Below are positions 11,340-63,589 of a DNA stretch of 64,000 bases, piece after piece. The first letter of the stretch is position 1. Each line of letters starts with the position of its first letter. Origin of the DNA: a virus (Duplodnaviria > Heunggongvirae > Uroviricota > Caudoviricetes); IMG/VR virus record IMGVR_UViG_3300022699_000502, positions 1-64,000 of that record. One strand, 5' to 3'. A program made the position numbers and the translations under genes. The notes below the pieces were generated by a model. It worked only from the letters and a program-made list of their open reading frames with translations. It made no database searches and was not told the DNA's origin.

Positions 11340-11839
11340 ATGAAACGACCATTAACATCATATCCATTTTCATCACACCACTCCAAGAAATCACCTGTAC
11401 CGCCACCTCGTGTCTCAATCGCCGAATTAAATTCACTACATATTTTTGCGAAATCTTCATAGTCCTCTGTGTTCCATTCATTTATTTGGAACCCGACGCT
11501 GTCGTCATTTGGTAAGAAAAACCACACTCCGGTGTTCTCAACACCAACTACCGTTGTTATGAAGGCAGGTGGTACACTTATTGCCGTGTCTTTTACTTCC
11601 AATCCGTCTTTACTAAAATCGATATCTTCAATATCGATGATTTGTTTAATAGGAATATGTGACAACTTATCGACATTCATCCCAATATCTTCGAGTTTAT
11701 CGCATTTTGGCCAATACTCGACCTTTAGTTTAGCATCCAATAAGTCTAATGCTCTTTTTAATACTGCTTTTTTCGATTCCGCATCTGTATATGGGAGCCT
11801 CGTAACTATTTCACTACAATTCGGTTGATCAACCATCAT
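11336..11839 (-). CDS. hypothetical protein (167 aa), translationally coupled to the radical-SAM gene
   Basis: start overlaps the radical-SAM gene's stop by 11 nt; acidic; function not recognised. Confidence 0.5.
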   Translation of the reverse strand: MMVDQPNCSEIVTRLPYTDAESKKAVLKRALDLLDAKLKVEYWPKCDKLEDIGMNVDKLSHIPIKQIIDIEDIDFSKDGLEVKDTAISVPPAFITTVVGVENTGVWFFLPNDDSVGFQINEWNTEDYEDFAKICSEFNSAIETRGGGTGDFLEWCDENGYDVNGRFI

Positions 11840-12629
11840 ATTTCCTCCTTTTTATATATGGACAACTAAATCTTTCATCTAATTGAACGTCTTTAAGTTT
11901 AGTGATGTCGGATGGTTCATCGAGATGTACTAATATGGAGTCGGCAAAACTGCACCCTCTTACATCACCCGTTTGGTCTATACACACAGTTGATGTGCCA
12001 TAATGACATGGTGATCCCCAATGATTTCCCATATTATCTAATAGTTTTGAACTGCATTCATCTACATATACGTTTTCTAATTTCTCGAAGTATCCGAATT
12101 CCCAATACTTGTCCAAAATATCCACTGTTGGTTCGTTTTTCATCGATAATAAATATACTCTATCTGCCCGATTAGATATACTATCAACGATGTTTACTAT
12201 GTTATCAAATACGCCGTCCGTCATCAATATGTTCGCACCTATACGTGAATCGCTAAACATCCGTGCTTGCTTGATGGTTTCTAAATACTCATCCATATTC
12301 CATTTGTAGTCATCGTATGATATACTGATCATGTCGATGTTAGCACTGCATTCTATCAGTTCATCTAAATACTTACCGTTCGTCGTCAAATTCATTTGTA
12401 CTCCATTCCGCTTCCCTTTTGCTGCCATCTTATGCAATAAATCACCTTTGTTTTTTAGTACTTCACCGCCGCCCACGGCTATCTGTTTCGTGTATGGCGC
12501 CACTTCTTCTACTAACTGCATCCAAAACTCATCCGGCCGACCCTCTTTGTTTTCTGCATAACAAAACGGGCAATCTAAATTGCAATCATTTGTTATATGC
12601 ATACTTACTACTTCAAAATTCATTTCCAT
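11829..12629 (-). CDS. radical SAM enzyme with C-terminal auxiliary Cys cluster (SPASM/Twitch-like)
   Basis: 266 aa; CNLDCPFCY CxxxCxxC cluster; glycine-rich VGGGE SAM-binding motif; C-terminal GSPCHYGTSTVCIDQTGDVRGCSF extra cysteines. Confidence 0.75.
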   Translation of the reverse strand: MEMNFEVVSMHITNDCNLDCPFCYAENKEGRPDEFWMQLVEEVAPYTKQIAVGGGEVLKNKGDLLHKMAAKGKRNGVQMNLTTNGKYLDELIECSANIDMISISYDDYKWNMDEYLETIKQARMFSDSRIGANILMTDGVFDNIVNIVDSISNRADRVYLLSMKNEPTVDILDKYWEFGYFEKLENVYVDECSSKLLDNMGNHWGSPCHYGTSTVCIDQTGDVRGCSFADSILVHLDEPSDITKLKDVQLDERFSCPYIKRRKYDG

Positions 12630-23381: not shown

Positions 23382-23553
23382 CATCTTCCTCCAAATCTGT
23401 CATTGTTACACTTTTTATGTTCCTCATGGGATAATATATTAGTCCATCATCAAAGTATATTTCTAGGTTTTGCTCCGACATATGTACGATTTCTTCTGTT
23501 GTTATCTCTTCCATATCTCCATTCATAAAATGGATTGTTACTTTTGTTTTCAT
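23374..23553 (-). CDS. hypothetical mini-protein (59 aa; hand-translated)
   Basis: MKTKVTIHFMNGDMEE...; ATG overlaps the ligase gene's stop as ATGA. Confidence 0.35.
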   Translation of the reverse strand: MKTKVTIHFMNGDMEEITTEEIVHMSEQNLEIYFDDGLIYYPMRNIKSVTMTDLEEDDG

Positions 23554-24437
23554 TTAAATGCCTCCCTATTTATAACTTGTCTTAATACTTCTTCGCACCT
23601 AGTCCCCACCATATTCCTTATTTCTTTGAAGTTTAGTTCCCAATTATTCCATATTATTTCGTCCCACTCTTCACTCCATATGTCTTTGTATACCGTATCC
23701 ATGAGTTGCGGCATTATCTCCATCTGTATGTTTCTGTTGTATTCGTCTCTTATCTTATATATGTTTTTTTCTATGCGGTGGTTAGTTACGTATTTGCTTA
23801 CGAATTTTTCGTTGTCGTCTGCTGCCCTGCCTTTTGGTTTCCCGTAAACTTTATCCCTTTTCTCAAAAAATTCTTCAGCTCGTTTTTTACTGAAGAACTG
23901 CGTACCATAACACTTTAATACCACTCCTTCTGCCTTACCATCTCTATATTCACTGTCTGGAACCTCTATGTCCTTTGGTGATACATGTCCTACAATAGTT
24001 ATTAAGGGCACCATATCAAAATTTAAGTCTTCAAATACTAACTGTTTTTTTGCATAACTTACAAATTGTTCATTTTCCTCGTCATATATGTCGAACCACA
24101 ACACATCAGGCATATTTTCCCAATCATACTCTAATGCATGCGGTACCATCTGTTCACCAAATAATGTTAAGTTATTATGTCCAAAATGTTCACATAATAT
24201 TTGTGACATCTCTTCAGGTGTTGTTTTGTTGTTAACATAATCTATTGTTTGCTGGAACTGTTCGCGATTACCGTTTAATCCAACAACGTTTCTACTCCTA
24301 AACAAAAAGCCATCGTTATTCAGTTTAACACCAACATTAGCACCATCCAACTTTTCTTCGATTATAACATCTCCAGAACCCTGTAAATTACTTATGTCTT
24401 CGCTCCCAAACTCACTTATTTTTGGATACTTCTTCAT
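23550..24437 (-). CDS. ATP-dependent polynucleotide ligase (nucleotidyltransferase superfamily; RNA-ligase-like)
   Basis: 295 aa; motif I EEKLDGANVG (KxDG); motif IV AEGVVLK (EGxVxK); small size and KLDGxN favour an Rnl2/Rnl3-like RNA ligase over a replicative DNA ligase. Confidence 0.7.
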   Translation of the reverse strand: MKKYPKISEFGSEDISNLQGSGDVIIEEKLDGANVGVKLNNDGFLFRSRNVVGLNGNREQFQQTIDYVNNKTTPEEMSQILCEHFGHNNLTLFGEQMVPHALEYDWENMPDVLWFDIYDEENEQFVSYAKKQLVFEDLNFDMVPLITIVGHVSPKDIEVPDSEYRDGKAEGVVLKCYGTQFFSKKRAEEFFEKRDKVYGKPKGRAADDNEKFVSKYVTNHRIEKNIYKIRDEYNRNIQMEIMPQLMDTVYKDIWSEEWDEIIWNNWELNFKEIRNMVGTRCEEVLRQVINREAFK

Positions 24438-26389: not shown

Positions 26390-26425
26390 ACTCTTTTCTC
26401 TTATATAAAAGTTTTGGGAATGGTG
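26390..26425 (-). promoter_or_regulatory. conserved viral promoter element copy 6
   Basis: ctcttttctcttatataaaagttttgggaatggtgt. Confidence 0.55.
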
Positions 26426-27403: not shown

Positions 27404-27475
27404 TTGCGGGTGGAGGAATCGAACCTCCGACTACCGGGTTATGAGCCCGGTGCCCTACCACTAGACCAACCCGCA
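27404..27475 (-). tRNA. tRNA-Met (anticodon CAU), initiator-like
   Basis: folds by hand as a 72-nt cloverleaf; 7-bp acceptor stem (U1:A72), U8, A14, D-loop GG, anticodon stem CCGGG/CCCGG, loop CUCAUAA with U33 and A37, 5-nt variable loop, T-arm GGAGG-TTCGATT-CCTCC; three G:C pairs next to the anticodon loop; no encoded CCA. Confidence 0.85.
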
Positions 27476-27477
27476 CA

Positions 27478-27771
27478 TTATCCTATAACATTTTTTATGG
27501 TGAATTCCCATCCACCCTTTCCGTACGTCCCTTCAACACTTACTTCCATCACATCATCTAAAGGCACCACAACTATGTCCGCCGTTATACCCTCATCATA
27601 GATGTCACCTCGTCCATCATTCTTAAAGTCATCAGCAACCATTGAACCACTATTGAACGTACTCGCATCGATATGTAGTTTGTTTATTGCATCTAATCTG
27701 TTTTTTGCCTCGATTGTACCTAAAATTTCGACTCTACCAAATTTTTTGATTCCAACCATATATTCCATCAT
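27478..27771 (-). CDS. hypothetical protein (97 aa)
   Basis: coding-strand ORF between the tRNA and aRF1. Confidence 0.4.
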   Translation of the reverse strand: MMEYMVGIKKFGRVEILGTIEAKNRLDAINKLHIDASTFNSGSMVADDFKNDGRGDIYDEGITADIVVVPLDDVMEVSVEGTYGKGGWEFTIKNVIG

Positions 27772-28754
27772 TTCACCTCATACCTCAATATTAGGCCGTG
27801 TTCGAATGTATCCTTGAAGTTTTTCCCATAATCCGTTGATGTATCTATATCTATTATGTTCGTTCCATATTTTTCAGCTAACTCTTTATGTTCGTCGTTC
27901 GTAGTTAGTAGTGTGTCGCCGGCTCCCATCCGTAATACCCTCTGTACGTCCTGCCCGTACGTCGCCATATCTTGTGTTATCTTCTTTTTGAACTCCTCTA
28001 TTTTTTCTTTCTGTTTACCTTTGTGTTTCTCTTCTATTGTTTTATGTGCCTTGTCCGTTAGTTCATTTAGGCCGTTTATGTTAGTGTACTCCACTGTATA
28101 TGTGTCTTGTGCTCCTATGTCGCAGTTTTTTAGGAAGTTTGTGGGGGTTAGGCCGGTCCCTCCCACAAACACGTAGTCGTGTGAGCCTATCAAATGCTTT
28201 GCTTTCTCACATACTTTCTTGTAGTATTGTTTTGCGCGCTCCTCTATGTCTCTTTCGAACCTTTGCGCCGATTGTCCACCCTGGCTATGTTTACTTGGTA
28301 CTAATGAATTTATGTGTTCTAATTCCATCGTACTATTATTAACGTGTTCACCTATGACGGCTTCTTTCCGGTCTAACACTATAAGACCTATCGATATTTT
28401 GTCTTTGTTGAGTACATCTAGTAGGGGTTGTACATAAAATGTGTTATCACAATAATACTTGTTTGGTACCTCACCTTCCACTTCGTATACCTCACATACT
28501 TCTTGTTTATCGACATCTCCTGAGAATACTACCAAAGATGTATCTAAATTGTTTATTCCTTTTAAAACGCGAATAATACGCTTTAGAGCAGCTTTAACGT
28601 TTCCCCTCGTCTCCTTACTCTTGATGTTATCGGATTTTGCGAGCTGTTGTTGTAATTTACTCTTCATCGCATTAATGTTATGGTCTTTATTTATGTATAC
28701 ACTTATCAGTTCCGTGTTGTTACCCCTCATGTCTTTTAGGTCCTCTACATCCAT
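27768..28754 (-). CDS. class-I peptide chain release factor, aRF1/eRF1 family
   Basis: 328 aa; N-term LKDMRGNNTELISVYI (compare eRF1 LEAARGNGTSMISLII); NIKS motif; YYCDNTFYVQPL (eRF1 YxCxxxF YLCDNKFH); GGQ motif HSQGGQSAQRFER. Confidence 0.8.
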   Translation of the reverse strand: MDVEDLKDMRGNNTELISVYINKDHNINAMKSKLQQQLAKSDNIKSKETRGNVKAALKRIIRVLKGINNLDTSLVVFSGDVDKQEVCEVYEVEGEVPNKYYCDNTFYVQPLLDVLNKDKISIGLIVLDRKEAVIGEHVNNSTMELEHINSLVPSKHSQGGQSAQRFERDIEERAKQYYKKVCEKAKHLIGSHDYVFVGGTGLTPTNFLKNCDIGAQDTYTVEYTNINGLNELTDKAHKTIEEKHKGKQKEKIEEFKKKITQDMATYGQDVQRVLRMGAGDTLLTTNDEHKELAEKYGTNIIDIDTSTDYGKNFKDTFEHGLILRYEVK

Positions 28755-28763
28755 AGTGTTTCC

Positions 28764-28988
28764 TCATTCGACATAGTAGTACCCGATCGTATCCTTGTCA
28801 CTTTCTTTGATATCGTTTACAAATTCGTTTAATGTTGCAACATACTCGATGTCTATTCTATATCTGTCCGATATTTTTAGGTCTGCTGCCTCTTTAGACT
28901 CTGCTTTCACAAATATGAGACCTCCGCTATACGGTCTCATTAGTTCATACACATATATATTCATTATTTCACCTTTGTTTTCGTCCAT
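28764..28988 (-). CDS. hypothetical protein (74 aa)
   Basis: coding-strand ORF. Confidence 0.4.
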   Translation of the reverse strand: MDENKGEIMNIYVYELMRPYSGGLIFVKAESKEAADLKISDRYRIDIEYVATLNEFVNDIKESDKDTIGYYYVE

Positions 28989-29474: not shown

Positions 29475-30422
29475 TTACTGGTCGGCCTCGTCGAGTGCAC
29501 CACTATCTTGTGATGTCGTTGGATCATACGTGTTGTTCGTATCGGTTTGTTCGTTTGGTATGGTTCCGTTTCCTATATCTAATATCAGACTTTGTCCACC
29601 TTCAGTTATGACCCACCTAACGTTACTTTCAGGATCCCTTAGTGCTTGTATATACCTAAGTGCCTTTATGTATTCCATCGTCTCTTGTGTCATATTTTCG
29701 GATTGATATGACAATATTTCTATCGCTTCGGCTTGACCTTCTGCTAACTGAACTGTTGCGTTAGCTTCACTGGCGGCTCTCACTCTAATCTTTTGCGCTC
29801 TTGCTTCTTCCGCATCCAACTCGTATTGTGCTGCCTTAACATCTATTCGAGCAGCTTCACGTTTTTCTGCAGCTGCCAACACGGCATTCGGCATATCAAC
29901 ATTCCTTATACGTACACTTTGTACATATAAATTCTCTATGTTCAATGCTTCTTTAACTGCAATCTGTACATTCTCATTGAATTTGGCTCTATTCTGGTTC
30001 AGTTCTAATCCCGTTAAGTTCATTTTGTTTGCCACCAATGTTATTTGTGATTCCAATTCCATCTTTATCTTTTCCTTGTATTGTGGGTTATTTACCCTTA
30101 AATCACCGACACTCTTCTCATCAATATTGTATTGTATCTGGTATGTGACCGGTACATTATAACCGTCATCCGTTATAACTTGTGTATCAACTTTTATGTA
30201 TTGTGTGTTATACCTGACCATTTCCGTCTCCAAAAATGGATTCTTAAAGTTGAATCCTTCATCGTATTGTGAACCGATTCCGCCGAACCCACTGACTCCT
30301 ACAGCTTTGTGTCCAGCTGGCACTATCACTACACTCATCGACAGTAGTACTATTAGTGCTACTACTATTATTCCTATTCCGACCATCAGGCCTTTTCTAA
30401 ATCCTTCATCTTTGCTTACCAT
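29475..30422 (-). CDS. SPFH/band-7 (stomatin/prohibitin/HflKC-like) membrane protein
   Basis: 315 aa; N-terminal transmembrane segment GLMVGIGIIVVALIVLLSMSVVIV then a band-7 core, then a long coiled-coil with AAEKREAARIDVKAAQYELDAEEARAQ. Confidence 0.7.
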   Translation of the reverse strand: MVSKDEGFRKGLMVGIGIIVVALIVLLSMSVVIVPAGHKAVGVSGFGGIGSQYDEGFNFKNPFLETEMVRYNTQYIKVDTQVITDDGYNVPVTYQIQYNIDEKSVGDLRVNNPQYKEKIKMELESQITLVANKMNLTGLELNQNRAKFNENVQIAVKEALNIENLYVQSVRIRNVDMPNAVLAAAEKREAARIDVKAAQYELDAEEARAQKIRVRAASEANATVQLAEGQAEAIEILSYQSENMTQETMEYIKALRYIQALRDPESNVRWVITEGGQSLILDIGNGTIPNEQTDTNNTYDPTTSQDSGALDEADQ

Positions 30423-31540: not shown

Positions 31541-31585
31541 CTTCCTATTATATAAATATATTGGGAATGGTGTTTAGGTTATGGG
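31541..31585 (-). promoter_or_regulatory. conserved viral promoter element copy 7
   Basis: cttcctattatataaatatattgggaatggtgtttaggttatggg. Confidence 0.6.
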
Positions 31586-43524: not shown

Positions 43525-44017
43525 ATAAAATTAGTGTTTATTTTTATAAAAATAAAATTTCAATAGGTTTATATGTAAAGTCTGCGTTAATTAAAAAAAA
43601 GAAAAAAAAAAAGAGGTCGGCTGGGCATACCTCTCAAAAAGGTTTGTAGGTTAATTACCTATGAATCTTGAGATAAAAATAAGCAAAATTGTAGGTAATA
43701 ATTTAAATCCTTATCTAATTTATTAAGTAATTTCATAATAACTTTATTTGGTCGGTATTACTGACTAAATAGAAATTAAACATTAAACTATCATACAGTT
43801 ATTAACTACCCTTAAAATAGGTTTAAACAATATTCAAGAGTAAATTAATACATACTTTTAGTATGCTTAAACATTAATCCTAATAAATTAGATAATAGGT
43901 TTTTTAGAATTTTTTTGGATAAACCAAATATAAAAAATCAATAATTCTGTATGTATGAATTTAAGTAGTATATACAGAATTAAAAAACCATTAAAATATA
44001 TATGTGAGGCGAATAAA

Positions 44018-44500
44018 ATGAAAAAAGAAGATATAGATAAATGGATAGAAGAAGCGAAAATAACAACAAACAACAAACAAAATAGTCTAAATATGAATGT
44101 AAGGGCAGATAGGTTATTATACCTATTTATCGGAGATAAAGAAAATAGGAAAATCCTTTATGGGAATGGATTACAGCAAAAAAGGATAAGAGATAGTCTG
44201 GTAAAATTAGGAATAGAAGAAGATAGTATAACCAGTCAGACCATTAGGAAACAAATGAGAAAAAACGCAGTAATAGATTATAACTGTAAAGAAACTAATG
44301 GAGATAATCCAGAAAATAAAACAAACAAACCTATATGGGCTAATAAAAGAAATTTCATTTATTACAGAGTTAATCCATATTATGTTAAGGAAAATATGGA
44401 TTTAAGGAAAGTCAGTAAAGTTGAAGTCAGTAATACAGTTAAGTCTATCATTAAATTCATTAAAAACCATCGACCAAAATTATATAATCTAAAGAAATAA
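44018..44500 (+). CDS. basic K/N-rich protein P1 of the AT-rich island (160 aa from the GAGG-linked ATG)
   Basis: GAGG 8 nt upstream of the ATG at 44018; very AT-rich codons; possible HTH near RIRDSLVKLGIEEDSITSQTIRKQMRKN. Confidence 0.5.
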   Translation: MKKEDIDKWIEEAKITTNNKQNSLNMNVRADRLLYLFIGDKENRKILYGNGLQQKRIRDSLVKLGIEEDSITSQTIRKQMRKNAVIDYNCKETNGDNPENKTNKPIWANKRNFIYYRVNPYYVKENMDLRKVSKVEVSNTVKSIIKFIKNHRPKLYNLKK

Positions 44501-44514
44501 AAACCTTTTATTTT
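44499..44514 (+). terminator. intergenic oligo-T element AAAAACCTTTTATTTT
   Basis: repeated after P1, P2 and P4; followed by TTTTTATATAAA TATA-like box. Confidence 0.35.
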
Positions 44515-44540
44515 CTTTTTTTATATAAATGGTGATAAAA

Positions 44541-44930
44541 ATGAATTTAGAAGATATGTATAAATTAAACATAAAATTCAATAATAGATATAGACTTAAG
44601 AATACAATTAAGAAAATAAAAAACAATAGTGAATACAGTAATTATGAGAAAATAAAAAGAATCAGTAGGTTAAAAAAGACCACAAAATTACATAATTGGT
44701 ATAAGTTATTTTCTTATTTTATAAAAGATAAGAAAATAATAACTGATACCGATTTAATTTTTACTGCATACAGATATATAACCAAATATACAGATATAAA
44801 AATAACCACAGTAATAAATAAATTTAATGAAATAGAATCATCATTAAAAACTAAATGGATAAAAGAAAAATCATTTTGGGTTAATATACAAAATGATGAA
44901 TTTTATCTTATCAGAAGTCTATGGAAATAA
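44541..44930 (+). CDS. basic K/N-rich protein P2 (129 aa)
   Basis: GGTGATAAAAATG start context. Confidence 0.5.
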   Translation: MNLEDMYKLNIKFNNRYRLKNTIKKIKNNSEYSNYEKIKRISRLKKTTKLHNWYKLFSYFIKDKKIITDTDLIFTAYRYITKYTDIKITTVINKFNEIESSLKTKWIKEKSFWVNIQNDEFYLIRSLWK

Positions 44931-44935
44931 AATAA

Positions 44936-44950
44936 AAACCTTTTATTTTT
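44936..44950 (+). terminator. intergenic oligo-T element AAAAACCTTTTATTTT
   Basis: second copy. Confidence 0.35.
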
Positions 44951-44994
44951 TATTTTTATATAAACTAAAAAACCTTTAATTTAGATGTGATAAA

Positions 44995-45423
44995 ATGATA
45001 TATGAATTTAATAGACCAGAAGAAATAAATTTAAAACCCTTTAAGGTTATTTTCAATAAAATAACCCTATCTGAAAATAGAAATCATTTAAAGATAAAAC
45101 TATCCTATTGGGATAATTGCCAAAGGTTAAGAGAAATAAATAAAAGGAAAAAAGAAACTGACTTATATATAAAAATACCAAAGAAATTAACTGATGATAT
45201 TAAGGTAAATATCAATAAAACAATAAACCTAAATTTAGAATTGGAATTAATCCATACAGTAATTAAAAATATAAAATATTTAATTTTACATAAAAATAGA
45301 AATTACAGTAAATATCATTATACAAAAATACAGAAAATTATAAGATTTTTAGAAGATATAGAAAATAAAATTTCCAGAAGGATAGATGTTAAACCATTAA
45401 ATGACTTATTTGGTGGTGAATAA
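44995..45423 (+). CDS. basic K/N-rich protein P3 (142 aa)
   Basis: GATGTGATAAAATG start context. Confidence 0.5.
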   Translation: MIYEFNRPEEINLKPFKVIFNKITLSENRNHLKIKLSYWDNCQRLREINKRKKETDLYIKIPKKLTDDIKVNINKTINLNLELELIHTVIKNIKYLILHKNRNYSKYHYTKIQKIIRFLEDIENKISRRIDVKPLNDLFGGE

Positions 45424-45424
45424 A

Positions 45425-45790
45425 ATGATAAAAAATACTTCTCTTATTGGATTAGGGAAAATAGTACATTTAAGAATAAACCAAATAGTAACAGATATAT
45501 CAGAAAATACAATTTATTTAGAATTTAATAAACATAATAGTGATAAAAACCATACTGATACAATAAGAATAATTGAAATAGATAAAAATAACATTAAAAC
45601 CAATAAATATAATGACCCAATTACTGAAATAACAATAAATGATGATACATTTATTAAAATAACATTTAATCAGTTATATAGTTGGATAGATACAATAATA
45701 TCATTTATTACGATAAATAATCAGATAGAGTTAAAAAGAAAATTAGAGAAAATACAGTTATTCTTAAATGAATATATAGATTATATCTAA
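45425..45790 (+). CDS. K/N/I-rich protein P4 (121 aa from the GGTGA-linked ATG)
   Basis: GGTGGTGAATAAAATG start context; abuts the P3 stop. Confidence 0.5.
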   Translation: MIKNTSLIGLGKIVHLRINQIVTDISENTIYLEFNKHNSDKNHTDTIRIIEIDKNNIKTNKYNDPITEITINDDTFIKITFNQLYSWIDTIISFITINNQIELKRKLEKIQLFLNEYIDYI

Positions 45791-45804
45791 AAACCTATTT
45801 TTTT
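45789..45804 (+). terminator. intergenic oligo-T element AAAACCTATTTTTTTT
   Basis: third copy (variant). Confidence 0.3.
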
Positions 45805-46057
45805 TATTATATTTTTTTGAGAATTTTTATTGGAATTTTTATATATAAATTAATTAATCCTTAATATCTATTATCCTATTTTCTATCTTAACATATAGGT
45901 TATAGATTTATCAAAATTAGGTTATTAGAAGTCTTATAGTGGGGTATATTACCGATTGAATTAATTGATTAAGGGTTAATAACATTTAGACTTTTTAGAT
46001 ACAATATAAAAATTATGATAATAGAAAATATAAATCTAATTTTGTGTGTTTTATCAT

Positions 46058-46222
46058 ATTTCTATTTACTCAATTCTTATAAATTAGTTAATTGTTAAAT
46101 TTTTATTTCTATAAACCTTAATCCTATAATTAACCTATATTTTATTTCTATAAACCTTAATCTTATAATAAGATATTTCTTATTTCTATTTACTTAATTC
46201 TTATATTAATTAGTTATTTCTT
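46058..46222. repeat. nested direct repeats R1-R2-R2-R1
   Basis: R1 ~36 bp TATTTCTATTTACT(C/T)AATTCTTATA..TTAGTTA at 46058 and 46180; R2 ~29 bp TTTATTTCTATAAACCTTAATC(C/T)TATAAT at 46097 and 46140. Confidence 0.5.
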
Positions 46223-46408
46223 AATTGATAGGTTAATATATATTTTATATCTATAAATTAAAAAATTCTGTAATTTTTTTTTTATAAGATTAATCCTAAT
46301 ATTAATTAAAATTTAATTTTTTTTAGATTGAGTTAATAAAAATATTTTCTATATTGAGATATTTTTATAAAATATTTTTAGCCGAATCTCAAATAAAAAT
46401 CATCTAAT

Positions 46409-46429
46409 CGTTTAGATATTATCTAAACG
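46409..46429. repeat. palindrome CGTTTAGATA-T-TATCTAAACG (right copy)
   Basis: 10-bp arms; core GTTTAGAT..ATCTAAAC is identical to 43506..43524; preceded by a partial CATCTAAT. Confidence 0.5.
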
Positions 46430-46784
46430 GAGAGATGAATTTTTTATATTCTTATAAAACAATTAAGGTAAATTAATTAATTAGTAGGTTTATTAAAATA
46501 TCTCTATATATGTGTGTATGACATATCGTCAGACATATTTATATTGAGATTTTAAATATTATACGGTATTAAATTGAGAATTTAAAATAATTTTATTTGA
46601 GAAAAATTTTCATTAATTATTTAAAATTTTAAATAATTAACAAATCTGTAAAATAATTTTTAATTATTAAAATCACAAAATAAATTTCATTTGTCACTGG
46701 TTATTTAAATTATATACAAATTTAAAATTTTTTTACCCTCCAATTATTCCAAAACATTTATATAGTACCCCATTTATATAATAT

Positions 46785-47327: not shown

Positions 47328-47546
47328 ATGTCGACAACAATGACGTTTGAAGCGAACGGATATTCCTTTAAAAGACCATCTGGGATAAAAATAGCCCACG
47401 AGGTACAAGATGTGACCGGCAGGATGCCCGACGGTATATCTGATAACGGTGACCGTATAACATTCATATGGAATAAGAGCTTGCCGTACGAACTCAAGTG
47501 TGCGGTGCGTGACCTGATGGATAGATATAGGTATGAAGAATTATGA
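47328..47546 (+). CDS. hypothetical protein (72 aa)
   Basis: between TerS and TerL; start overlaps the TerL start region (ATGA). Confidence 0.4.
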   Translation: MSTTMTFEANGYSFKRPSGIKIAHEVQDVTGRMPDGISDNGDRITFIWNKSLPYELKCAVRDLMDRYRYEEL

Positions 47547-48967
47547 CGAGCGAACTCCAAAAACAAATGGCCATCGAGATGAAGGCCTTTAGAGATCCGC
47601 GCATCTTCGTAGAAGATATTCTAGGTATAGATTGGTTGTGGCCAGTCCAAGAAGAACTAATTTACGACTTCTATGACGGTAATTACCAACAGCTAGTTGC
47701 GGTCCTAGGTCAACGTAGCGGAAAGACAACTGCGGCATCAATAATAGCTACCTATGAACTATTTAAACTATTAGCCATCGGTAAACCATGTTCATATTAC
47801 GATTTGCCAGCAGGCCAGGACCTATATATTATATGCACCGCGTCAAGCGCGCAACAGGCAAAGGATACGATATATTCTCAGGTGGAAGCCCGTATTGAAA
47901 ATTGCGAATGGTTTAAAAATTACGGATATACAAAACATTCACGCGAATTCATATTTGAAACAGATGAAAACGAAATATATTTAAGATCAGAACATTCAAA
48001 TTCGTCGTCACTTGCAGGGCATACGTGTAAAGCCGTTCTTCTTGATGAAATGGCACGGTTCAAAGACACAGGCGGTCATACATCAGCCGATATGGTGTAC
48101 GACACACTTAGCAGAACACTCGCTACATTCGGTCGCCAAGGAAAAATGGTAGTTATATCATCACCGCTCTTGAAGGACGACTTCCTCATGAACTTATATA
48201 GGTCGGGGAAAGAAGATCCTCGGACACTCACAAAGCATTACGCGACATGGGAAGCGAACCCGAACATAACAATGGAGGATTTGGATAGCGAATTCCAAAG
48301 GAATCCTGAAGCAGCGTGGCGTGATTTCGGTGCACAACCGTCATCTTCATTAGAAGGTTATTTCAAAGAACAGGATCGTATCGATGACGTAGTAGATACT
48401 TCCATAGAGTTGTGCCCTGATGAATATACACCACCCGACATCCCATCCATCGAACAACCATGTTACATAGCGGGCGACCCAGCTACTAAAAACGACGCGT
48501 TCGGTATAGCTATGTGCCACCAAGACCCTAAAACTGAAAAAATATTAGTAGATATTGCGCATAGGTTCGAACCAAAAGGCACTAAATCAGCAGAAGTTGA
48601 TGCACAAAAGGTCGCGGAATTCATAGTTGAGTTAGCCGAAAAACATAACGTTGTATCATTCACAACAGACGTATGGTCATTCCAAAGAGCATTACAGCGC
48701 ATAGAACAGGCCGGCATACCAGTCGAACAAAACCACGCGCTCAAAGAGGAATATGACCACCTTAAAGAATTAATTTACACAAATCAAATTAAGTTACCCG
48801 ACACTAAAGTCGTGGAAGAATTAAAATCATTAGAGATCAAAAACGCAAAGAAAGTCGACCACCCATCAAAAGGTAGCAAAGATGTATCCGATGCTGTTTG
48901 TAACGCAGTATGGGCCCTTGAACAAAAAAGTGGCGATACGGAAGAACCGATCGCGCTTGTATTTTAA
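47543..48967 (+). CDS. terminase large subunit
   Basis: 474 aa; Walker A LGQRSGKTT, Walker B VLLDEMARF, C-terminal RNaseH-like nuclease acidic residues (GDPATKNDAFGIAMCH, TTDVWSFQ). Confidence 0.85.
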   Translation: MTSELQKQMAIEMKAFRDPRIFVEDILGIDWLWPVQEELIYDFYDGNYQQLVAVLGQRSGKTTAASIIATYELFKLLAIGKPCSYYDLPAGQDLYIICTASSAQQAKDTIYSQVEARIENCEWFKNYGYTKHSREFIFETDENEIYLRSEHSNSSSLAGHTCKAVLLDEMARFKDTGGHTSADMVYDTLSRTLATFGRQGKMVVISSPLLKDDFLMNLYRSGKEDPRTLTKHYATWEANPNITMEDLDSEFQRNPEAAWRDFGAQPSSSLEGYFKEQDRIDDVVDTSIELCPDEYTPPDIPSIEQPCYIAGDPATKNDAFGIAMCHQDPKTEKILVDIAHRFEPKGTKSAEVDAQKVAEFIVELAEKHNVVSFTTDVWSFQRALQRIEQAGIPVEQNHALKEEYDHLKELIYTNQIKLPDTKVVEELKSLEIKNAKKVDHPSKGSKDVSDAVCNAVWALEQKSGDTEEPIALVF

Positions 48968-49057: not shown

Positions 49058-50326
49058 ATGTTTGAAGGAATAAAGAAGATGTTTAATTTGGACTCATCGA
49101 TCGCAGAAAGCAAAATTGCTGGATTTCCTAAAAAGCGTAAATGGAGTGATGAGTGGCCAGAAGAAATGGACGATTATGGTGATGTATACGAGCAAGTAAG
49201 TGTAGTTAGACAATGTATTAGTTTGATAGCCGATTTTTCGGTATCAACAGGATATCACGTTAAAACTCCGCATGATGATCTAGAGAAACGCATCAAAAAT
49301 ATGCAAAAACGTACCAATTTCGGTGAATTTTTGAAGACAGCCGTCAAAAAGCGTGAGATATGGGGTTATGCGGCTTTTGAGATCGTCACCGATGGAAATG
49401 GACATATAACTGGATTTAATGCACTAGATTCACGTAAATTAAAGGTTAAAGTTGATGAAAATACGATGGAAATAGACCATTTTGAGTACTTAACAGGTGG
49501 TACTCAATACGTTTTGGATCCTGATGACGTCTTTTACGTCACAAAGGATTCATTAGACACATCTAGAAAGGGTGTAAGTGCATTAGAGTCTATTAAGACG
49601 ACAATTAAGAGGAAATGGCAGCTTGAGAAGGATTTAGAACAAGCCGCGATGCGTTTATGGGCTCCCTACACGTTATTCCAATTTGACACATCGTATGTAC
49701 AAGATAAGGAGAAGCAGAAGAGGGAGATGCAGAAATTCACTGAGCAAATAAAACCCGGTAAAACTATTGTGCATAATAAGAAAGTTGAGCCGAGTATAAT
49801 CGATATGAGTCCTGACATTGGTTCACTTAATGAATCTATTGATAATGCTGATCAAGAAATAATGGGTAATTGGAGCATACCAAAGGCATTATTGTCAAGA
49901 GAACAATCTAGTACTGGTGCAAGTTTGGCACCTGCTGTTAGGTCCCTTTATGAATCCACAGTTGCTTCGGTTCAACAGTATTTTAAAAGTGAGATCGAGA
50001 ATCAAATTTATGATAGGATTGCAAAAGAGATGGAGTATGAACCTAATGTAGCTGAACACGCATGGAGGCCGCCTAAATTCCATGATAGTACACTTATTAG
50101 AGCATTATCATATGCTGTACGCAACGGTGTTATATCACCCAAAGATATGGTTACTATGTTGGGTTGGGATGTTGAAGATGTCCCAGATGCAGGAGCAGAT
50201 GGGGATGCGGCACCACGTGAAAGAGCACCTCCTGGTAATCAGCCGGAAACTATGTCGATGGATGTCGTTGAAGCGATCAAGGAAGATCCGGAGATGTTAA
50301 GACAACTCAAGGAGGCGTTACAATGA
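49058..50326 (+). CDS. portal protein candidate
   Basis: 422 aa immediately after TerL (conserved synteny); the size fits; no decisive motif readable by eye. Confidence 0.55.
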   Translation: MFEGIKKMFNLDSSIAESKIAGFPKKRKWSDEWPEEMDDYGDVYEQVSVVRQCISLIADFSVSTGYHVKTPHDDLEKRIKNMQKRTNFGEFLKTAVKKREIWGYAAFEIVTDGNGHITGFNALDSRKLKVKVDENTMEIDHFEYLTGGTQYVLDPDDVFYVTKDSLDTSRKGVSALESIKTTIKRKWQLEKDLEQAAMRLWAPYTLFQFDTSYVQDKEKQKREMQKFTEQIKPGKTIVHNKKVEPSIIDMSPDIGSLNESIDNADQEIMGNWSIPKALLSREQSSTGASLAPAVRSLYESTVASVQQYFKSEIENQIYDRIAKEMEYEPNVAEHAWRPPKFHDSTLIRALSYAVRNGVISPKDMVTMLGWDVEDVPDAGADGDAAPRERAPPGNQPETMSMDVVEAIKEDPEMLRQLKEALQ

Positions 50327-56434: not shown

Positions 56435-59400
56435 GTGCATGATAAGATACATGGTGTTTCCCACGAATATGGTGGGGAAGACGAAATCAGCGTCGATAGT
56501 CTCAGTGGGCTATTAGTAGATCCGCAATATACACGCGTACTTGATAGTGGTGCGTATGAAGGTACTTCATATACTCTTGATTTTGATACTGGTTTGAGGG
56601 CTCAACTAGATGTTGATGATGTAGTTGTTACGCTTGATGCGATATTATCTGATTTAGATGATGTGTCAGGCATTTCATACGATACCGGGAAGGTTTTAGT
56701 AGGTGATGGATCCGAATTTCATGCTGACTACCTAAGTCATAGTGCATTATTAGGACTAACAGATGATGATCATTTAGAATATTTGCCAAGAGATGGCCAA
56801 AGAGCCATGTATGGCGACCTCGATATGGGTAGCCAAGAAATAACGAACGTAACATATGTGGATGGTATAGATATATCGGAGCATGATCATGATGGAGATG
56901 CACCAAATGTTCCGATGGAAGGATTGTTGGATATCAATGGGTTTTCAAAATTAGATTTAGGTAAATATGTTGATAGACCAATACCGGGTATCCAGGATAG
57001 AGTTTATACTGCTTATGATAGTCAAGTTGGTTTTTGGTATGACGATGGTAGTAGTTGGAGAGCATTAACTACTAAAAATCATCAAAGTTTAACTGGAATT
57101 AAATCTGATGATCATCATAGTAGGTATACTGATGGTGAAGCTATAACAGCTATAAATACTGACGGAGACCATGGAAGTACAGCTCAACACGACTACTATA
57201 CGGATAGTGACGCAATAACCGCTATAAATAACGATACTGATCATGGTAGTACAGCACAACATAACTACTTCAGTGGATCACACGACGACTTAACAGATGT
57301 GAGTGTGAATGACCATATAAGTAACATAACGGATATACCAAACAGAGATCATAATGATTTAAACAACATAGGAACTTCGGATCATCATGTAAAGACCGGT
57401 GATGATGAAGTATATGCACTTACTAGGTATCAAAGTGCGCAGCCGGGCACGCCTAGTGCTGGTATGACATATATGGATAGCGACAACGACATCATATATG
57501 TTTATGATGGTACATCATGGCAAGGAGCCAAGGCAGAGGCTGCAGTAGGAATATTATCCGATTTAGGCGATGTTACCAACGTAGATTATACTGATGGGTA
57601 TGTGTTGAGAGCGGATGGGTCAAAATACGTATCAACGACGCTTAATCATGATGATTTAACTAATGTAAATAGTGATGATCATCATAGTAGATATACAAAT
57701 AGTGAAGCAGTAACAGCGATAAACGACGACAGTGATCACGGAAGCACAGCGCAACATGACTATTTTAGCGGTTCTCATGATGATTTAACTGATGTAAGTG
57801 CAACAGATCACATTCAAAATTTAAACCAAATACCTACTAGAAGTCACGATGATTTACAGAATATCGATAGTAGTGATCATCATGTCAAAACGGGTGATGA
57901 TGAAGTATATGGTTTAATTCATTATGATGATAGTTCACCCGGTGATTCGCAACTTGGATTAGCATATGTAGATACGTATGACAACATATTATATGTTAAT
58001 GACGGAACTTCGTTTGTTGGTGTAAAAGGAGCATCACCGAGTATATTTTTGGAAGATATTCAAGATGTTAGTGATGTTAGTTATAATGCAGGGTATGTGT
58101 TGAGAGCGGATGGTTCACAGTACGCTACTTCAACATTAAGACATACTGATCTTACTAACGTACAGCCCGAGCAACATCATGTTGCATTTGTAGGGCTTGA
58201 AGATAATCAAGGTGTTGTGGTACAACCTGCACCTGATGATAGGGTTCAGTTTACTGATGATGAAATTGTTAATGCGGATGCTGTTGATAGTACAGTAGCA
58301 TTTTCAATAGATCAATCTAAAATTTCACATGATAGTATATCAGGAGTGTCACCTGATGATCACCATAATGCATTTATAGGATTAGAAGATGAAGACGGTG
58401 CTGTTGTTGATCCTGCAATTGATAACAGAATACAAATACTTGGTGATGATACCATCAGCATCGTTGGTAGCGCTAGCGTACTTAACCTATCTGCGTCTGT
58501 AGGAAACATACATCATGATAGTTTATTAGGTCTAACAGCGCATAATCATCATTACAAGACAGTAGATGATGAGGTATATGGGTTAACGAGAAGGCAATCC
58601 AATGCACCGGGTTCACCTAGTGCTGGTATGACATATATGGACGCAGAGAATGATGTGATCTATGTATATGATGGTACAAGTTGGTCCGGCGCGAGAGCAG
58701 AAGCAGCTGTAGGCCAACTTTCTGACCTTTCTGATGTACAAAATATCGGATATACTGATGGATATGTACTAAGAGCATCAGGATCATATTATGAGACTTC
58801 ACAGTTGAGTCACACTGATTTGGGTGACATCGGTTCTAGTGCTCATCACACAAGATATAGTGATGAAGAGGCACAAGATGCCGTAGGACCTATAGTAACA
58901 GGCGGTACAAACATCGATGTGACTTATAATGATGGTGTTCCATCTATTGTTGTTGATAATACACAAAGCAAGTATACTGATGAAGAGGCACAAGATGCCG
59001 TCGGCAACATAATGGTCGGAACCGGAGCTACTACGGTTGACTATGATGATAGTACTGACACAATAACAATAGATAGTACGCAACTGAATGAAGAAACAGT
59101 ACAAGATTATGCTTGGGACGTATTAGATGGCACTCAGACGCTCATAAACGTTACTTATGATGATCAAAATGATAATGTAGACTTTGTAGTCAGAGAATCT
59201 GAGATCAATCATAATAACTTAATAAACGGCAGTCAAATTGATGCGCATCATACTAGATATACAGATATGGAAGCAATTAATGCTGTTGAATCATACGGAG
59301 CACTTGATATATCTGTTACAAACTCTGATATGGTGGATAGTTACCATGCAAGTGCTTTCGTGTTAGAGTCCGGAGACAGTATGAGTGGTAACCTAAAGGT

Positions 59401-62644: not shown

Positions 62645-63542
62645 CGATAATAGAGGTAAAATAATGGTAGAACAATATAAAAATAAAAAAGTATTGCAGA
62701 AGTTATATTATGATAAGGAAATGAGTATGTCAGAAATAGGTAATAAATTTAATGTTTCACAACAAACAATAATGTATTATATGGACAAATATGATATTAA
62801 AAGAAGAAGTTTATCGGAAGCACTCAAAGGTGAAAATGCTCCTATGTATGGTAAAACACATAGTGAAGAAACTAAAAAGAAAATGTCAGAATCACATAAG
62901 GGTGTAAACCATCACCAGTATGGGAAAAAACTTCCTCAGGAAGTTAAACAAAAAATATCAGAGTCTATGAAGGGAGAAAAAAATCCTATGTACGGAAAGT
63001 TAGGTAAAGATGCTCCTTGGTATAATAAAAGTCATTCCGAAGAAACTAAAAAGAAAATGTCAGAATCACATAAGGGTGTAAACCATCATTTCTACGGCAA
63101 GAATTTATCTAAAAAACATAAGAATAAGATATCAGAATCTATGAAAGGAAAAACATGTAGTGAGGAAACTAAGCAGAAAATTTCCAAAGCATTATCAGGT
63201 GAAAATGCTCCGTGGTATGGTAAATCAGGTAAAGATAATCCTCATTGGAAACCTGATAGTAATAATTATGAGATTTGGAGAGAAAGAACTTTATCAAGTA
63301 ATAAGTATCAAAAAGTTAGAAAAAAAGTACTAAAAAGAGATAATTATAAATGTCAATTGTGTGATAATAATATGAAATTAGAAGTTCATCATATTATACC
63401 AATGAGAAAACTATGGGATATAGATAATAAAAAATTGGTTACAGATATAAATAATCTTATCACGTTATGTAAGAAATGTCATCAAAGTATAAAAGGTAGG
63501 GAAAAGGAATATAAAAAGATTTTTAAGGAGATTGTAAAATAA
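62637..63542 (+). CDS. HNH homing endonuclease with NUMOD3 DNA-binding repeats
   Basis: 301 aa; repeated (T/S)HSEETKKKMSESHKG... NUMOD3-type units (5 or more); C-terminal HNH CQLCDN..EVHHIIP..N..LCKKCH; N-terminal HTH. Confidence 0.75.
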   Translation: MRNDNRGKIMVEQYKNKKVLQKLYYDKEMSMSEIGNKFNVSQQTIMYYMDKYDIKRRSLSEALKGENAPMYGKTHSEETKKKMSESHKGVNHHQYGKKLPQEVKQKISESMKGEKNPMYGKLGKDAPWYNKSHSEETKKKMSESHKGVNHHFYGKNLSKKHKNKISESMKGKTCSEETKQKISKALSGENAPWYGKSGKDNPHWKPDSNNYEIWRERTLSSNKYQKVRKKVLKRDNYKCQLCDNNMKLEVHHIIPMRKLWDIDNKKLVTDINNLITLCKKCHQSIKGREKEYKKIFKEIVK

Positions 63543-63589
63543 GGTGAGTATTATGGTAGATATTAAGATTAAAATATTAGGTGATATAT

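Follow-up and report, generated by a model that had tools for sequence, protein, structure and literature searches.

A reduced archaeal-type class-I release factor, probably functional, encoded by a tailed virus with candidate halophilic Thermoplasmata hosts

The window analysed here, a stretch of 64,000 nucleotides belonging to a 137-kb metagenome contig, carries on its minus strand a gene coding for a class-I release factor of the aRF1 family (Table 1). A GAGGA element located upstream of the start codon was read as a putative Shine-Dalgarno sequence. An in-frame TGA occurs 12 nt 5' of the ATG, so that the short N-terminus of the protein is real and not a start-codon artefact. Genes for a large terminase (about 26% identical to bacterial phage terminases), a portal, a 2069-aa tape-measure-like protein and homing endonucleases were detected in the same window. 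These sequence assignments confirmed that the window derives from a tailed virus and bear out the viral setting that had been ascribed to the release-factor gene in a first-pass annotation of the DNA letters. The immediate surroundings of the gene are dense in ORFans, which make up most of its neighbours. An RNA ligase (PF09414) is also encoded in the window.

The predicted protein is organised into N, M and C domains, the limits of domain N being an approximate reading based on the Pfam span, the alignment and the secondary structure of the model. All three functional signatures of the family were found. In the alignment, N43 and K45 of the NIKS motif were invariant and I44 and S46 nearly so, while the invariant columns of the YxCxxxF motif corresponded to Y100, C102, D103 and F106, and those of the GGQ loop (context HSQGGQSAQRFER) to G159, G160, Q161, S162, R165 and F166. 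Compared with its homologs, the protein has a first helix of domain N shortened by about 18-20 residues and a domain C devoid of the Cys4 mini-domain of about 45-50 aa. Domain C is, in homologs, the site of contact with the GTPase partner and ABCE1. The viral sequence ends with GLILRYEVK, and an ILR[YWF] end is common to all the homologs aligned; for eRF1, a GILRY-type terminus of this kind is implicated in binding of the GTPase partner.

Table 1. Coordinates of the aRF1 gene, its domains and motifs, and the features discussed with it (positions in the window).
Feature	Position	Strand	Remarks
Promoter-like motif, copy CCATTCCCA..TTTATATA	31549..31570	minus	Repeated motif, TATA-box-like
Shine-Dalgarno-like GAGGA	28761..28765	minus	Read from sequence; ends 6 nt before the aRF1 ATG, overlaps the stop (TGA) of the preceding ORF
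aRF1-family class-I release factor gene	27768..28754	minus	Single uninterrupted ORF, 328 aa, ATG start, TGA stop
Domain N (stop-codon decoding)	28401..28754	minus	Residues 1-118, approximate; Pfam eRF1_1 at residues 7-85
Gln37 at the human eRF1 E55 position	28644..28646	minus	Alignment column otherwise invariant Glu
NIKS motif	28617..28628	minus	Residues 43-46, context KSDNIKSKETR
YxCxxxF motif (YYCDNTF)	28437..28457	minus	Residues 100-106
Domain M (peptidyl-tRNA hydrolysis)	28080..28400	minus	Residues 119-225, boundary approximate; Pfam eRF1_2 over residues 122-241, 69 bits
GGQ catalytic motif	28272..28280	minus	Residues 159-161, context PSKHSQGGQSAQRFER
Domain C	27771..28079	minus	Residues 226-328; Pfam eRF1_3, 27.5 bits; alignment
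97-aa ORF	27478..27771	minus	ATG overlaps the aRF1 stop (ATGA); no Pfam match
tRNA, CAU anticodon	27404..27475	minus	ARAGORN; Rfam RF00005, 67.4 bits; about 290 nt downstream of aRF1
Promoter-like motif, next copy	26402..26423	minus	Marks the start of the following unit
Large terminase	47543-48967		phrog_2 at 1.1e-26
Portal	49058-50326		PF04860 at 1e-19

The family assignment was investigated by profile and structure comparisons. All three Pfam domains scored above their gathering thresholds (eRF1_1, 25.7 against 23.8; eRF1_2, 69.2 against 27.1, with an E-value of 5.6e-19; eRF1_3, 27.5 against 25.8). The NCBIfam model TIGR03676 (aRF1_eRF1) matched with an E-value of 1.7e-64 and 218.1 bits, missing the curated equivalog cut-off of 234.7, a shortfall that fits the deletion of the helix, loops and mini-domain. 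Among the sequences of solved structures the best relative was the aRF1 4af1 (E 1.7e-36), with human eRF1 matching at about 6e-22, and the AF2 model (pLDDT 89.6) displayed the aRF1 fold, 4af1 being the top Foldseek match (1.5e-27, TM 0.73). The profile and sequence scores lie well outside what chance would produce. Motifs, Pfam domains, TIGR03676 and 4af1 uphold the original proposal of a virus-encoded class-I release factor with intact NIKS, YxCxxxF and GGQ motifs. The best reading of these sequence and model comparisons is that the viral protein may act as a working release factor.

The shortfall of 80 to 100 residues estimated at first sight with respect to cellular aRF1 was about right, as the nearest cellular proteins are 407-415 aa long and the viral one is 79-87 residues shorter. 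The missing parts, as judged from the alignment, are the N-terminal helix, the Cys4 mini-domain and three loops; the protein is a reduced aRF1 and not a truncated one. The mini-domain is dispensable elsewhere, because the cellular aRF1s of 358-373 aa from DPANN archaea and A. pernix are likewise devoid of it. The best genome match (L013) was also considered as a short form and turned out to be an ordinary cellular aRF1 of 408 aa.

Identity to cellular aRF1s was about 37% overall and about 40% at most to any of them, so the capture of the gene cannot be recent. The sole close relative, P0002, shares 52% identity, has an intact ORF and carries Glu at the E55 position. Out of 86 columns conserved in at least 90% of cellular aRF1s, 57 were kept in both viral proteins, including all motif residues. 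The maintenance of the motif columns at about 37% identity, together with the integrity of both viral ORFs at 52% identity, argues for selection on function. The remaining 29 near-invariant columns differed in one or both viral proteins, the E55-position Glu (Gln37 here) among them, and in the trees the viral protein formed a long branch outside every sampled cellular housekeeping clade. Because of this long branch and of the changed positions, its function may be altered or relaxed.

Cellular archaeal aRF1s (TIGR03676; 4af1 from Halobacterium salinarum, 3agk and 3vmf from Aeropyrum pernix) share with the viral protein the N/M/C architecture, the three motifs and the ILRY-type end, whereas the latter is encoded by a virus, shorter, just below the TIGR03676 cut-off, endowed with Gln at the E55 position and placed on a long branch. 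The closest named cellular aRF1s, with 36-40% identity, are those of Thermoplasmata, halophilic soda-lake lineages included. Short, divergent aRF1 paralogs without the mini-domain and with NIKS and GGQ also occur in haloarchaea (P0005, 349 aa; P0057 and P0085, 358 aa; locus L085 on chromosome 2 of Haladaptatus halobius), and a neighbour-joining tree placed these and the viral pair together (87% bootstrap). Since all the branches involved are long, this grouping may reflect long-branch attraction. The paralogs differ from the viral pair in their cellular gene neighbourhoods, a GC content of 53-64% and about 10 additional N-terminal residues. As to its origin, the gene was probably captured from an archaeal host, likely a member of the Thermoplasmata, and then minimised during a long residence in the virus.

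A release factor in a virus had been described as rare at the outset, and this was substantiated: the GenBank phage collection (50,697 records), searched for cultured relatives, returned no aRF1 match, and a motif-anchored scan of 2.9 million IMG/VR contigs yielded only four eRF1-like loci. The terminase, given its low identity to those of bacterial phages, did not point to an informative relative either. A second family of minimal aRF1s (L009 type; IMGVR_UViG_3300042261_001929 and about 20 protein clusters) was found on viral contigs carrying Baseplate_J, terminase, NAMPT and NrdD genes. Its members, of 304-339 aa, possess the three eRF1 domains and NIKS, YxCxxxF and GGQ, likewise lack the mini-domain and the N-terminal helix, the chain starting directly with the GTELIS strand, and keep Glu at the E55 position. 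They are 29% identical to the window protein and were never grouped with it in bootstrap trees (0/200), and tblastx detected no further genes common to L009 and the window. This family therefore looks like an independent acquisition followed by convergent reduction. More generally, synteny comparisons of the window with the P0002 contig, L003/L004, L009 and L012 returned the aRF1 gene as the only one in common.

The gene appears to be linked to a tRNA. A TATA-box-like motif containing TTTA[AT]ATA occurs 13 times in the window (expectation 0.07), always on the minus strand, and two of these copies bracket the aRF1 gene and the tRNA(CAU). The upstream copy probably starts a transcription unit comprising an SPFH gene, aRF1 and the tRNA, and the downstream copy reads as the limit of that unit, so that aRF1 and tRNA(CAU) appear to be transcribed together. 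The overlap of the 97-aa ORF start with the aRF1 stop suggests that these two reading frames are translationally coupled. This ORF was not conserved beside P0002, and the small ORFs flanking aRF1 showed no conservation between the window and L002. The tRNA has a U1:A72 pair and three G:C pairs at the base of the anticodon stem, and we take it to be initiator-like from the tRNA identity elements; it may be an initiator, an elongator Met or an AUA-reading Ile2 tRNA. The loci used for comparison contained no cellular CAU tRNA. Proximity to tRNAs recurs elsewhere, the P0002 aRF1 gene lying directly downstream of 15 tRNA genes, in a virus-like tRNA island, and an M-domain-only homolog in L012 being found inside a 17-tRNA array.

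An archaeal host is suggested indirectly by the archaeal type of the aRF1, the similarity of PolX, the promoter motif, the AUA bias and the proteome pI. The PolX of the window shares 48% identity with proteins from Ca. Saliniplasma and Ca. Natronoplasma, being closest to Ca. Halarchaeoplasmatales (halophilic Thermoplasmata), and the AUA bias and pI of the virus match those of halophilic Thermoplasmata contigs. From the similarity of this one protein and from composition, the hosts are probably halophilic Thermoplasmata archaea.

We then considered the genetic code, as a reassignment of stop codons between virus and host had been put forward to explain the presence of a viral release factor. 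The standard code gave a strand-coherent gene map with a coding density of 0.88, and re-calling the genes with TAG, TGA or TAA as sense codons did not raise the density and broke the strand coherence. The 109 viral genes end with TAA (47), TGA (47) and TAG (15), and no in-frame stops were found in the conserved viral proteins, terminase, portal, PolX and aRF1 being uninterrupted. All three stops are also used in the candidate-host contigs, where TAG ends 6 of 36 genes. There is no sign of an altered genetic code in the virus, and the idea of reassignment was abandoned. Since the candidate host has the same stops and similar codons, no obvious mismatch in termination demand exists.

Taken together, we favour with moderate confidence the view that the virus encodes an omnipotent archaeal class-I release factor, probably functional and cut down to the three essential domains, which belongs with the tRNAs to a translation-support module operating under an unchanged code. 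The viral aRF1 would be produced early or midway through infection and brought to the ribosomes of the host by its aEF1-alpha-GTP, which also carries cellular aRF1. There the viral factor would read UAA, UGA and UAG in the A site, with the GGQ motif triggering peptidyl-tRNA hydrolysis, and the ribosomes would then be recycled by host ABCE1. Together with the viral tRNAs, it might uphold the termination capacity during take-over or substitute for the host factor. The other suggestion of the first-pass annotation, a rescue of termination during host shut-off, would fit the linkage of the gene to the tRNA.

A stronger version of such a substitution, which we hold to be unlikely, is that the host aRF1 disappears, or is put out of action by either the virus or a defence of the host, the minimised viral protein escaping inactivation and imposing its own stop preference, with Gln37 weak on UAG. 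Were this the case, the virus would control which messages terminate efficiently, and the N-terminal helix and mini-domain, lost convergently in two unrelated viral lineages, would mark targeted or regulated surfaces of the cellular factor.

The residue at the E55 position, where Glu takes part in reading the stop-codon purines, also raises the possibility, to which we assign a low probability, of a shifted specificity: Gln37, perhaps with other changes in domain N, would make the protein efficient at UAA and UGA and poor at UAG, so that its replacing host aRF1 would bias termination, for instance to the benefit of viral late genes or by permitting UAG read-through. Glu was found in this column in 40 of 40 cellular aRF1s. 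Human eRF1 bearing E55Q retains 75/35/80% of its activity on UAA/UAG/UGA, as determined in vitro for the human protein and not in an archaeal system (PMC4698671, Table 1); since the mutant is still active, Gln37 is compatible with the aRF1/eRF1 family and does not exclude membership. TAG is indeed the rarest viral stop, ending only 3 of the 52 genes that encode at least 100 aa; in the structural block it ends none of the 17 genes, and in the other one 15 of 92. However, this difference is not significant (Fisher p = 0.12), which led us to discard an avoidance of TAG in late genes, and low TAG use is common in prokaryotes generally. Moreover, Gln37 is not a feature of the lineage, because both P0002 and the L009 family keep Glu.

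It is quite improbable that the trimmed protein acts as a decoy, engaging aEF1-alpha or ABCE1 of the host, or the A site of the ribosome, in a non-productive way and thereby halting or reprogramming host translation. The loss of the N-terminal helix and mini-domain, the many changes at conserved positions and the sub-threshold TIGR03676 score would suit an inhibitor, but an inhibitor has no need for intact GGQ, NIKS and YxCxxxF motifs in two viral proteins 52% identical and in an independent family, and the viral mRNAs must terminate on the same ribosomes.

The first-pass annotation had named Pelota/Dom34 as the competing family. The overall eRF1-like fold is common to the viral protein, Pelota/Dom34 and bacterial Balon, which might suggest a stop-codon-independent role in ribosome rescue or quality control during infection, and the RNA ligase encoded in the window hints that RNA damage matters to the virus. 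Foldseek values for Pelota (1e-13 to 1e-9) and Balon (1e-17) stand against 1e-27 for aRF1, and by sequence Pelota matched the C-terminal part alone (residues 195-327, E 1e-3). Pelota/Dom34 has an Sm-like N domain, and to our knowledge neither this family nor Balon possesses NIKS or GGQ, both of which are present in the viral protein. These motifs and the weak, partial matches rule out a Pelota/Dom34 identity; aRF1s head both the sequence and the structure matches, and the protein is aRF1-like and of archaeal type. With the stop-codon decoding motifs conserved, a rescue function is very improbable.

That the virus has adapted to a host in which a stop codon is reassigned, such as a relative of Methanomassiliicoccales with UAG read as pyrrolysine, where the viral factor would enforce termination, deserves hardly any credence. 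Many of the top cellular matches are indeed aRF1s of Methanomassiliicoccales, an order known for pyrrolysine use, but conserved viral proteins contain no in-frame stops, the gene map is no better under any reassignment, TAG is a stop in the candidate-host contigs, PolX points to the non-methanogenic Halarchaeoplasmatales, and Gln37 would, if anything, weaken the reading of UAG; a pyrrolysine-using host is thus unsupported and largely refuted. Finally, an assembly or binning artefact in which viral DNA was joined with a fragment of a host aRF1, or a recently captured gene in decay and without a role, could be imagined from purely metagenomic data and from a long branch that might mean relaxed constraint, but is extremely unlikely, as the protein was called on two contigs, the gene is embedded in over 60 kb of consistently viral sequence and flanked by copies of the viral promoter-like motif, with a GC content of 39% (37% in the window) and viral codon usage (AUA makes up 19 of the 23 Ile codons, the same preference as elsewhere in the virus), the low identity to any cellular aRF1 speaks against recent capture, and the 52% relative also occurs in a virus-like tRNA island.

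If the favoured reading of a functional viral aRF1 holds, the protein would represent a naturally minimised aRF1, about 80 residues smaller, with the same reduction apparently attained in two independent viral lineages, and thus a natural experiment on the dispensable parts of aRF1/eRF1. Large viruses infecting halophilic Thermoplasmata, a little-known group, would likewise gain a marker gene and a hypothesis on their host.

In a survey of tailed viruses of archaea published in 2021, tRNAs, Trm112 and ribosomal protein L21e are listed, with release factors absent, and a catalogue from 2026 covering 3,708 archaeal viral genomes makes no mention of one. We found no earlier report of a release factor in an archaeal virus, the precedents being giant-virus eRF1 and phage RF1/RF2. 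Catalogued viral proteins of the aRF1 fold (BFVD) all come from giant viruses. Their eRF1s (Mimiviridae; Klosneuvirinae such as Hyperionvirus, Catovirus and Bodo saltans virus; Orpheovirus; Marseilleviridae) are, like the window protein, virus-encoded class-I factors of the same fold, and often lie near viral tRNAs and other translation genes (BFVD matches; L010, L011; termination genes of Mimivirus and Megavirus in PMC3521657). The giant-virus proteins are eukaryote-type, belong to Nucleocytoviricota and are 10-20% identical to the window protein, whereas the latter is archaeal-type and encoded by a tailed virus. The Mimivirus and Megavirus eRF1 genes need recoding events for their expression, unlike the aRF1 gene of the window, which is a plain ORF. 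Bacteriophages with recoded stops reportedly carry RF1 or RF2, as Ivanova and colleagues are said to have described in 2014 and Borges and colleagues in 2022. Here too a prokaryotic virus combines a class-I release factor acting on termination with tRNAs, but RF1 and RF2 have an unrelated fold, are codon-specific and accompany a code switch, whereas the window aRF1 belongs to an omnipotent family and recoding was not detected. For eukaryotic viruses (eRF1 of giant viruses) and bacterial ones (RF1/RF2 of recoded phages), release factors are already on record, and, if the aRF1 described here is functional, virus-encoded translation termination would reach the third domain of life.

The first-pass annotation had proposed a virus-encoded class-I release factor of the aRF1/eRF1 family carrying intact NIKS, YxCxxxF and GGQ motifs, and profile and structure comparisons confirmed this identification, with similarity far beyond chance. 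The protein (aRF1) cannot extend further at its N-terminus, since an in-frame TGA lies 12 nt 5' of the ATG. It passed the Pfam gathering scores for all three domains (eRF1_1, 25.7; eRF1_2, 69.2; eRF1_3, 27.5 bits) and matched the NCBIfam aRF1_eRF1 model (TIGR03676) with an E-value of 1.7e-64 and 218 bits, narrowly missing the curated equivalog cut-off of 234.7. The top matches among solved structures were archaeal aRF1s (4af1, 1.7e-36; 3agk, 2.8e-29), followed by eukaryotic eRF1 structures at ~1e-22. The AlphaFold2 model, built with 42 homologs in the alignment, was confident (mean pLDDT 89.6), and Foldseek returned aRF1 4af1 as the best match (1.5e-27, TM 0.73), with Balon (1e-17) and Pelota (1e-13 or weaker) far behind. 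As Pelota structures also aligned in sequence to the C-terminal third only (1e-3), a Pelota identity was rejected. Architecture, fold and the three motifs agree with membership of the family, from which the protein departs in the TIGR03676 score and in one invariant Glu.

Coordinates and extents of the features discussed (window positions unless a contig is named)
Feature	Location	Strand	Details
aRF1 ORF	27768-28754	minus	328 codons, start ATG, stop TGA
NIKS motif	aRF1 residues 43-46
YYCDNTF motif	aRF1 residues 100-106
GGQ motif	aRF1 residues 159-161
N-terminal helix, missing			~18-20 residues, from alignment
Domain N loop, missing			5 residues, from alignment
Loop near M/C junction, missing			~8 residues, from alignment
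Cys4 mini-domain inserted in domain C, missing			~45-50 residues, from alignment
SPFH/Band-7 protein	29475-30422	minus	same apparent transcription unit as aRF1
tRNA(CAU)	27404-27475	minus	67 bits; ~290 nt downstream of aRF1
CCATTCCCAWWAWWTTTAWATA copies	1744, 5873, 11127, 15415, 21616, 26402, 31549, 33468, 33919, 34162, 34591, 36905, 37261	minus
RNA ligase	23550-24437	minus	PF09414
Radical-SAM protein	11829-12629	minus	best NCBIfam match prokaryotic viperin, weak
Low-GC region at minus/plus strand switch	43900-46750		GC down to 21%
38-nt tandem repeat	46099-46209		2.9 copies
Direct repeats within tape-measure-like protein	57064-57911		137-220 nt, 72% identity
HNH endonuclease	62637-63542		~six NUMOD3 repeats (62818-63227)
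tRNA array	L002 962-3377		15 tRNAs
Domain-M ORF	L012 10061-10444		127 aa, domain M only; IMGVR_UViG_3300005264_000029, 125 kb, 28% GC
L009-type aRF1s	L009 10010-10987; L093 10001-10915; L094 5105-6115		proteins P0248-P0267
Haloarchaeal short aRF1 paralogs	L005 10001-11050; L008 3324-4400; L085 3001-4044

The length deficit, put at about 80 to 100 residues in the initial annotation, amounted to ~80 relative to the nearest cellular aRF1s (407-415 aa). The conserved C-terminal ILR[YWF] end is still present, so the protein is minimised rather than truncated. The mini-domain is also absent from cellular aRF1s of 358-373 aa (DPANN archaea, A. pernix) and is thus dispensable in cells too. The window protein and its viral relative P0002 both retain 57 of the 86 alignment columns that are at least 90% conserved among 40 cellular aRF1s. 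As everything known to be required for aRF1 action is retained, canonical function is most likely, and nothing so far points to an unusual mechanism. The position of human E55, a Glu invariant in cellular aRF1, is occupied by Gln37, which might shift stop-codon specificity; human eRF1 E55Q has 75% activity on UAA, 35% on UAG and 80% on UGA (PMC4698671, Table 1) and P0002 retains the Glu, and we consider such a shift unlikely, if the best placed of the alternatives. A role as decoy or inhibitor appears less probable still, and stop-independent ribosome rescue slightly more doubtful again.

Stop-codon reassignment, also raised at first, found no support. The standard code gave the window a coding density of 0.88 with coherent strands, and reading TAG, TGA or TAA as sense scrambled the strands without raising density; the expectation that one type of in-frame stop would interrupt ORFs failed, as none occurs in the conserved viral proteins. 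All three stops are used: TAA, TGA and TAG end 47, 47 and 15 strand-coherent genes, and 25, 24 and 3 genes of at least 100 aa. TAG ends none of the 17 structural-block genes (not significant, p = 0.12) and 6 of 36 genes on contigs of the candidate host. Neither virus nor candidate host showed signs of recoding, and an adaptation to a recoded host is very improbable.

The genome around aRF1 is viral. Genes for a large terminase and a portal protein are present in the window, as are those for a 2069-aa tape-measure-like protein, homing endonucleases of the HNH and LAGLIDADG types and a PolX-PHP polymerase, with dozens of ORFans around the annotated genes. The genes lie in two blocks, one on the minus strand (1 to ~43 kb) and a structural one on the plus strand (~44 to 63.5 kb). 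The radical-SAM protein scored 53 bits against the prokaryotic viperin model, whose cut-off is 180. Gene calls on two contigs include an identical aRF1 protein, and the longest of these contigs has 137,081 bp (JGI 3300022700). The gene has a GC content of 39% vs 37% for the window and uses AUA for 19 of its 23 Ile codons, a viral composition that argues against an assembly chimera or recent capture; a passenger or artefact is scarcely credible.

The low-GC region consists of four basic ORFs (pI about 10) followed by ~940 ORF-free nt holding the tandem repeat, and might serve as a replication origin or have been acquired as an island. An exact match to locus L001 puts the window at positions 76699-140698 of a contig recorded as only 137,081 bp; the window may derive from the second aRF1-carrying contig or from a circularised version (window 60384-64000).

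The 22-nt motif CCATTCCCAWWAWWTTTAWATA occurs 13 times in the window vs 0.07 expected. All copies are intergenic, have the same orientation as the minus-block genes and lie ~35-40 nt 5' of start codons with GAGG-like sequences ahead of them; none was found in the structural block. It joins a TATA-box-like core to a conserved upstream element, CCATTCCCA, which could be bound by a viral or host regulator. We take the TTTA[AT]ATA core to fit the archaeal TATA-box consensus, which AT-rich phage promoters may also resemble, and the motif is probably a viral promoter of the early or middle phase. The copies at 31549 and 26402 flank one apparent transcription unit, in which the SPFH gene, a zinc-ribbon ORF and two small ORFs precede aRF1, and a 97-aa ORF overlapping the aRF1 stop, tRNA(CAU) and three further ORFs follow it. 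The tRNA shows U1:A72, the acceptor stem GCGGG and an anticodon stem closed by three G:C pairs, presumably initiator-like features with the archaeal A1:U72 pair flipped. Because AUA is the commonest Ile codon of the virus (766 AUA vs 398 AUG), it may alternatively be an AUA-reading Ile2 tRNA. A similar tRNA lies at 3093-3165 on L002, the contig of P0002.

Among 1.84 billion representative proteins searched exhaustively, no relative of aRF1 exceeded 39% identity, and a word-indexed search returned one close relative, P0002 (330 aa, 52% identity). It is encoded directly downstream of the tRNA array on L002, a 6-kb, 34% GC contig whose tRNA anticodons mostly read A- or U-ending codons and whose remaining genes have no known domains. 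This tRNA linkage is the sole neighbourhood feature common to the two proteins; no other shared genes were found around them.

Motif-anchored scanning of IMG/VR gave four eRF1-like loci. The GVMAG contig L010 looks like a giant virus, as does L011, with eukaryote-like low-complexity proteins as neighbours. The domain-M ORF of L012 carries GGQSAQRF inside a 17-tRNA array and may represent either an autonomous GGQ domain or what is left of a broken release-factor gene; HNH endonuclease genes are scattered through that array. L009 encodes a full aRF1 of 325 aa that keeps NIKS, YxCxxxF and GGQ, begins at the GTELIS strand as the window protein does and lacks the mini-domain. Its type comprises ~20 further clusters (304-339 aa), some labelled 'peptide chain release factor subunit 1' by the JGI pipeline, and contexts were viral in all three examined (Baseplate_J, NrdD, dUTPase, terminase, NAMPT). 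In bootstrapped neighbour-joining trees, aRF1 and P0002 paired in 100% of replicates, never joined L009 and grouped with haloarchaeal short aRF1 paralogs at 87%, although all branches of this grouping were long. The L009-type family, the larger of the two, appears to be a lineage independent of the window protein, and the simplest reading of these sequences would be that archaeal tailed viruses captured aRF1 independently at least twice and that the same two parts were lost convergently.

The haloarchaeal paralogs (349-358 aa) are divergent, lack the mini-domain and occupy ordinary cellular neighbourhoods, one on Haladaptatus halobius chromosome 2. Many aRF1 homologs of 500-970 aa (P0392, P0417, P0419, P0441 and others) match in two or three separate stretches with a break near residue 162, just after GGQ, consistent with cellular aRF1 genes interrupted by inteins.

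A halophilic Thermoplasmata host is plausible on indirect support. The window PolX has one probable viral relative (57% identity), ahead of cellular matches, and shares 46-48% identity with the PolX proteins of Ca. Saliniplasma and Ca. Natronoplasma, two genera of the Ca. Halarchaeoplasmatales, a halo(alkali)philic order, and with those of other Thermoplasmata/Thermoplasmatota MAGs. The closest named cellular aRF1s are from Thermoplasmata (36-40% identity), including soda-lake isolates B1Sed10 and CSSed, Ca. Saliniplasma and Ca. Halarchaeoplasma, with DPANN aRF1s about equally distant. L002 comes from sample SL_8KL_010_SED, by its name presumably soda-lake sediment. Virus and candidate-host contigs agree in composition, with GC of 37% and 36-51%, AUA shares of Ile codons of 59% and 49%, and median protein pI of 5.1 and 5.2. 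In L014, a MAG labelled Candidatus Aenigmatarchaeota (isolate D5M12_30), both aRF1 termini (MEMTKKDEYDFKK...LLRFRIN) are of the halophilic Thermoplasmata type, and the contig may be mis-binned.

The recurring tRNA linkage, in the window with an initiator-like tRNA, suggests a translation-support module, and we favour, with somewhat better than even confidence, a canonical release factor acting within it. Host aEF1-alpha-GTP would deliver the viral aRF1 to an A site occupied by a stop codon, archaea being known to lack eRF3; peptide release would then be triggered by its GGQ, and ribosome recycling would follow through ABCE1. Together with the virus-encoded tRNAs, the protein would supply translation apparatus during take-over.

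Release factors RF1 and RF2 are known from recoded bacteriophages. Class-I release factors encoded by giant viruses are a further precedent (PMC3521657); all significant BFVD matches of aRF1 came from giant viruses, at 10-20% identity to the window protein. No report of a release factor in archaeal viruses appeared in full-text searches of non-subscription literature, nor is one mentioned in a 2021 arTV survey or a 2026 catalogue. Virus-encoded release factors now apparently extend, unreported so far, to archaeal tailed viruses, in a minimised form that offers a natural minimisation open to testing.
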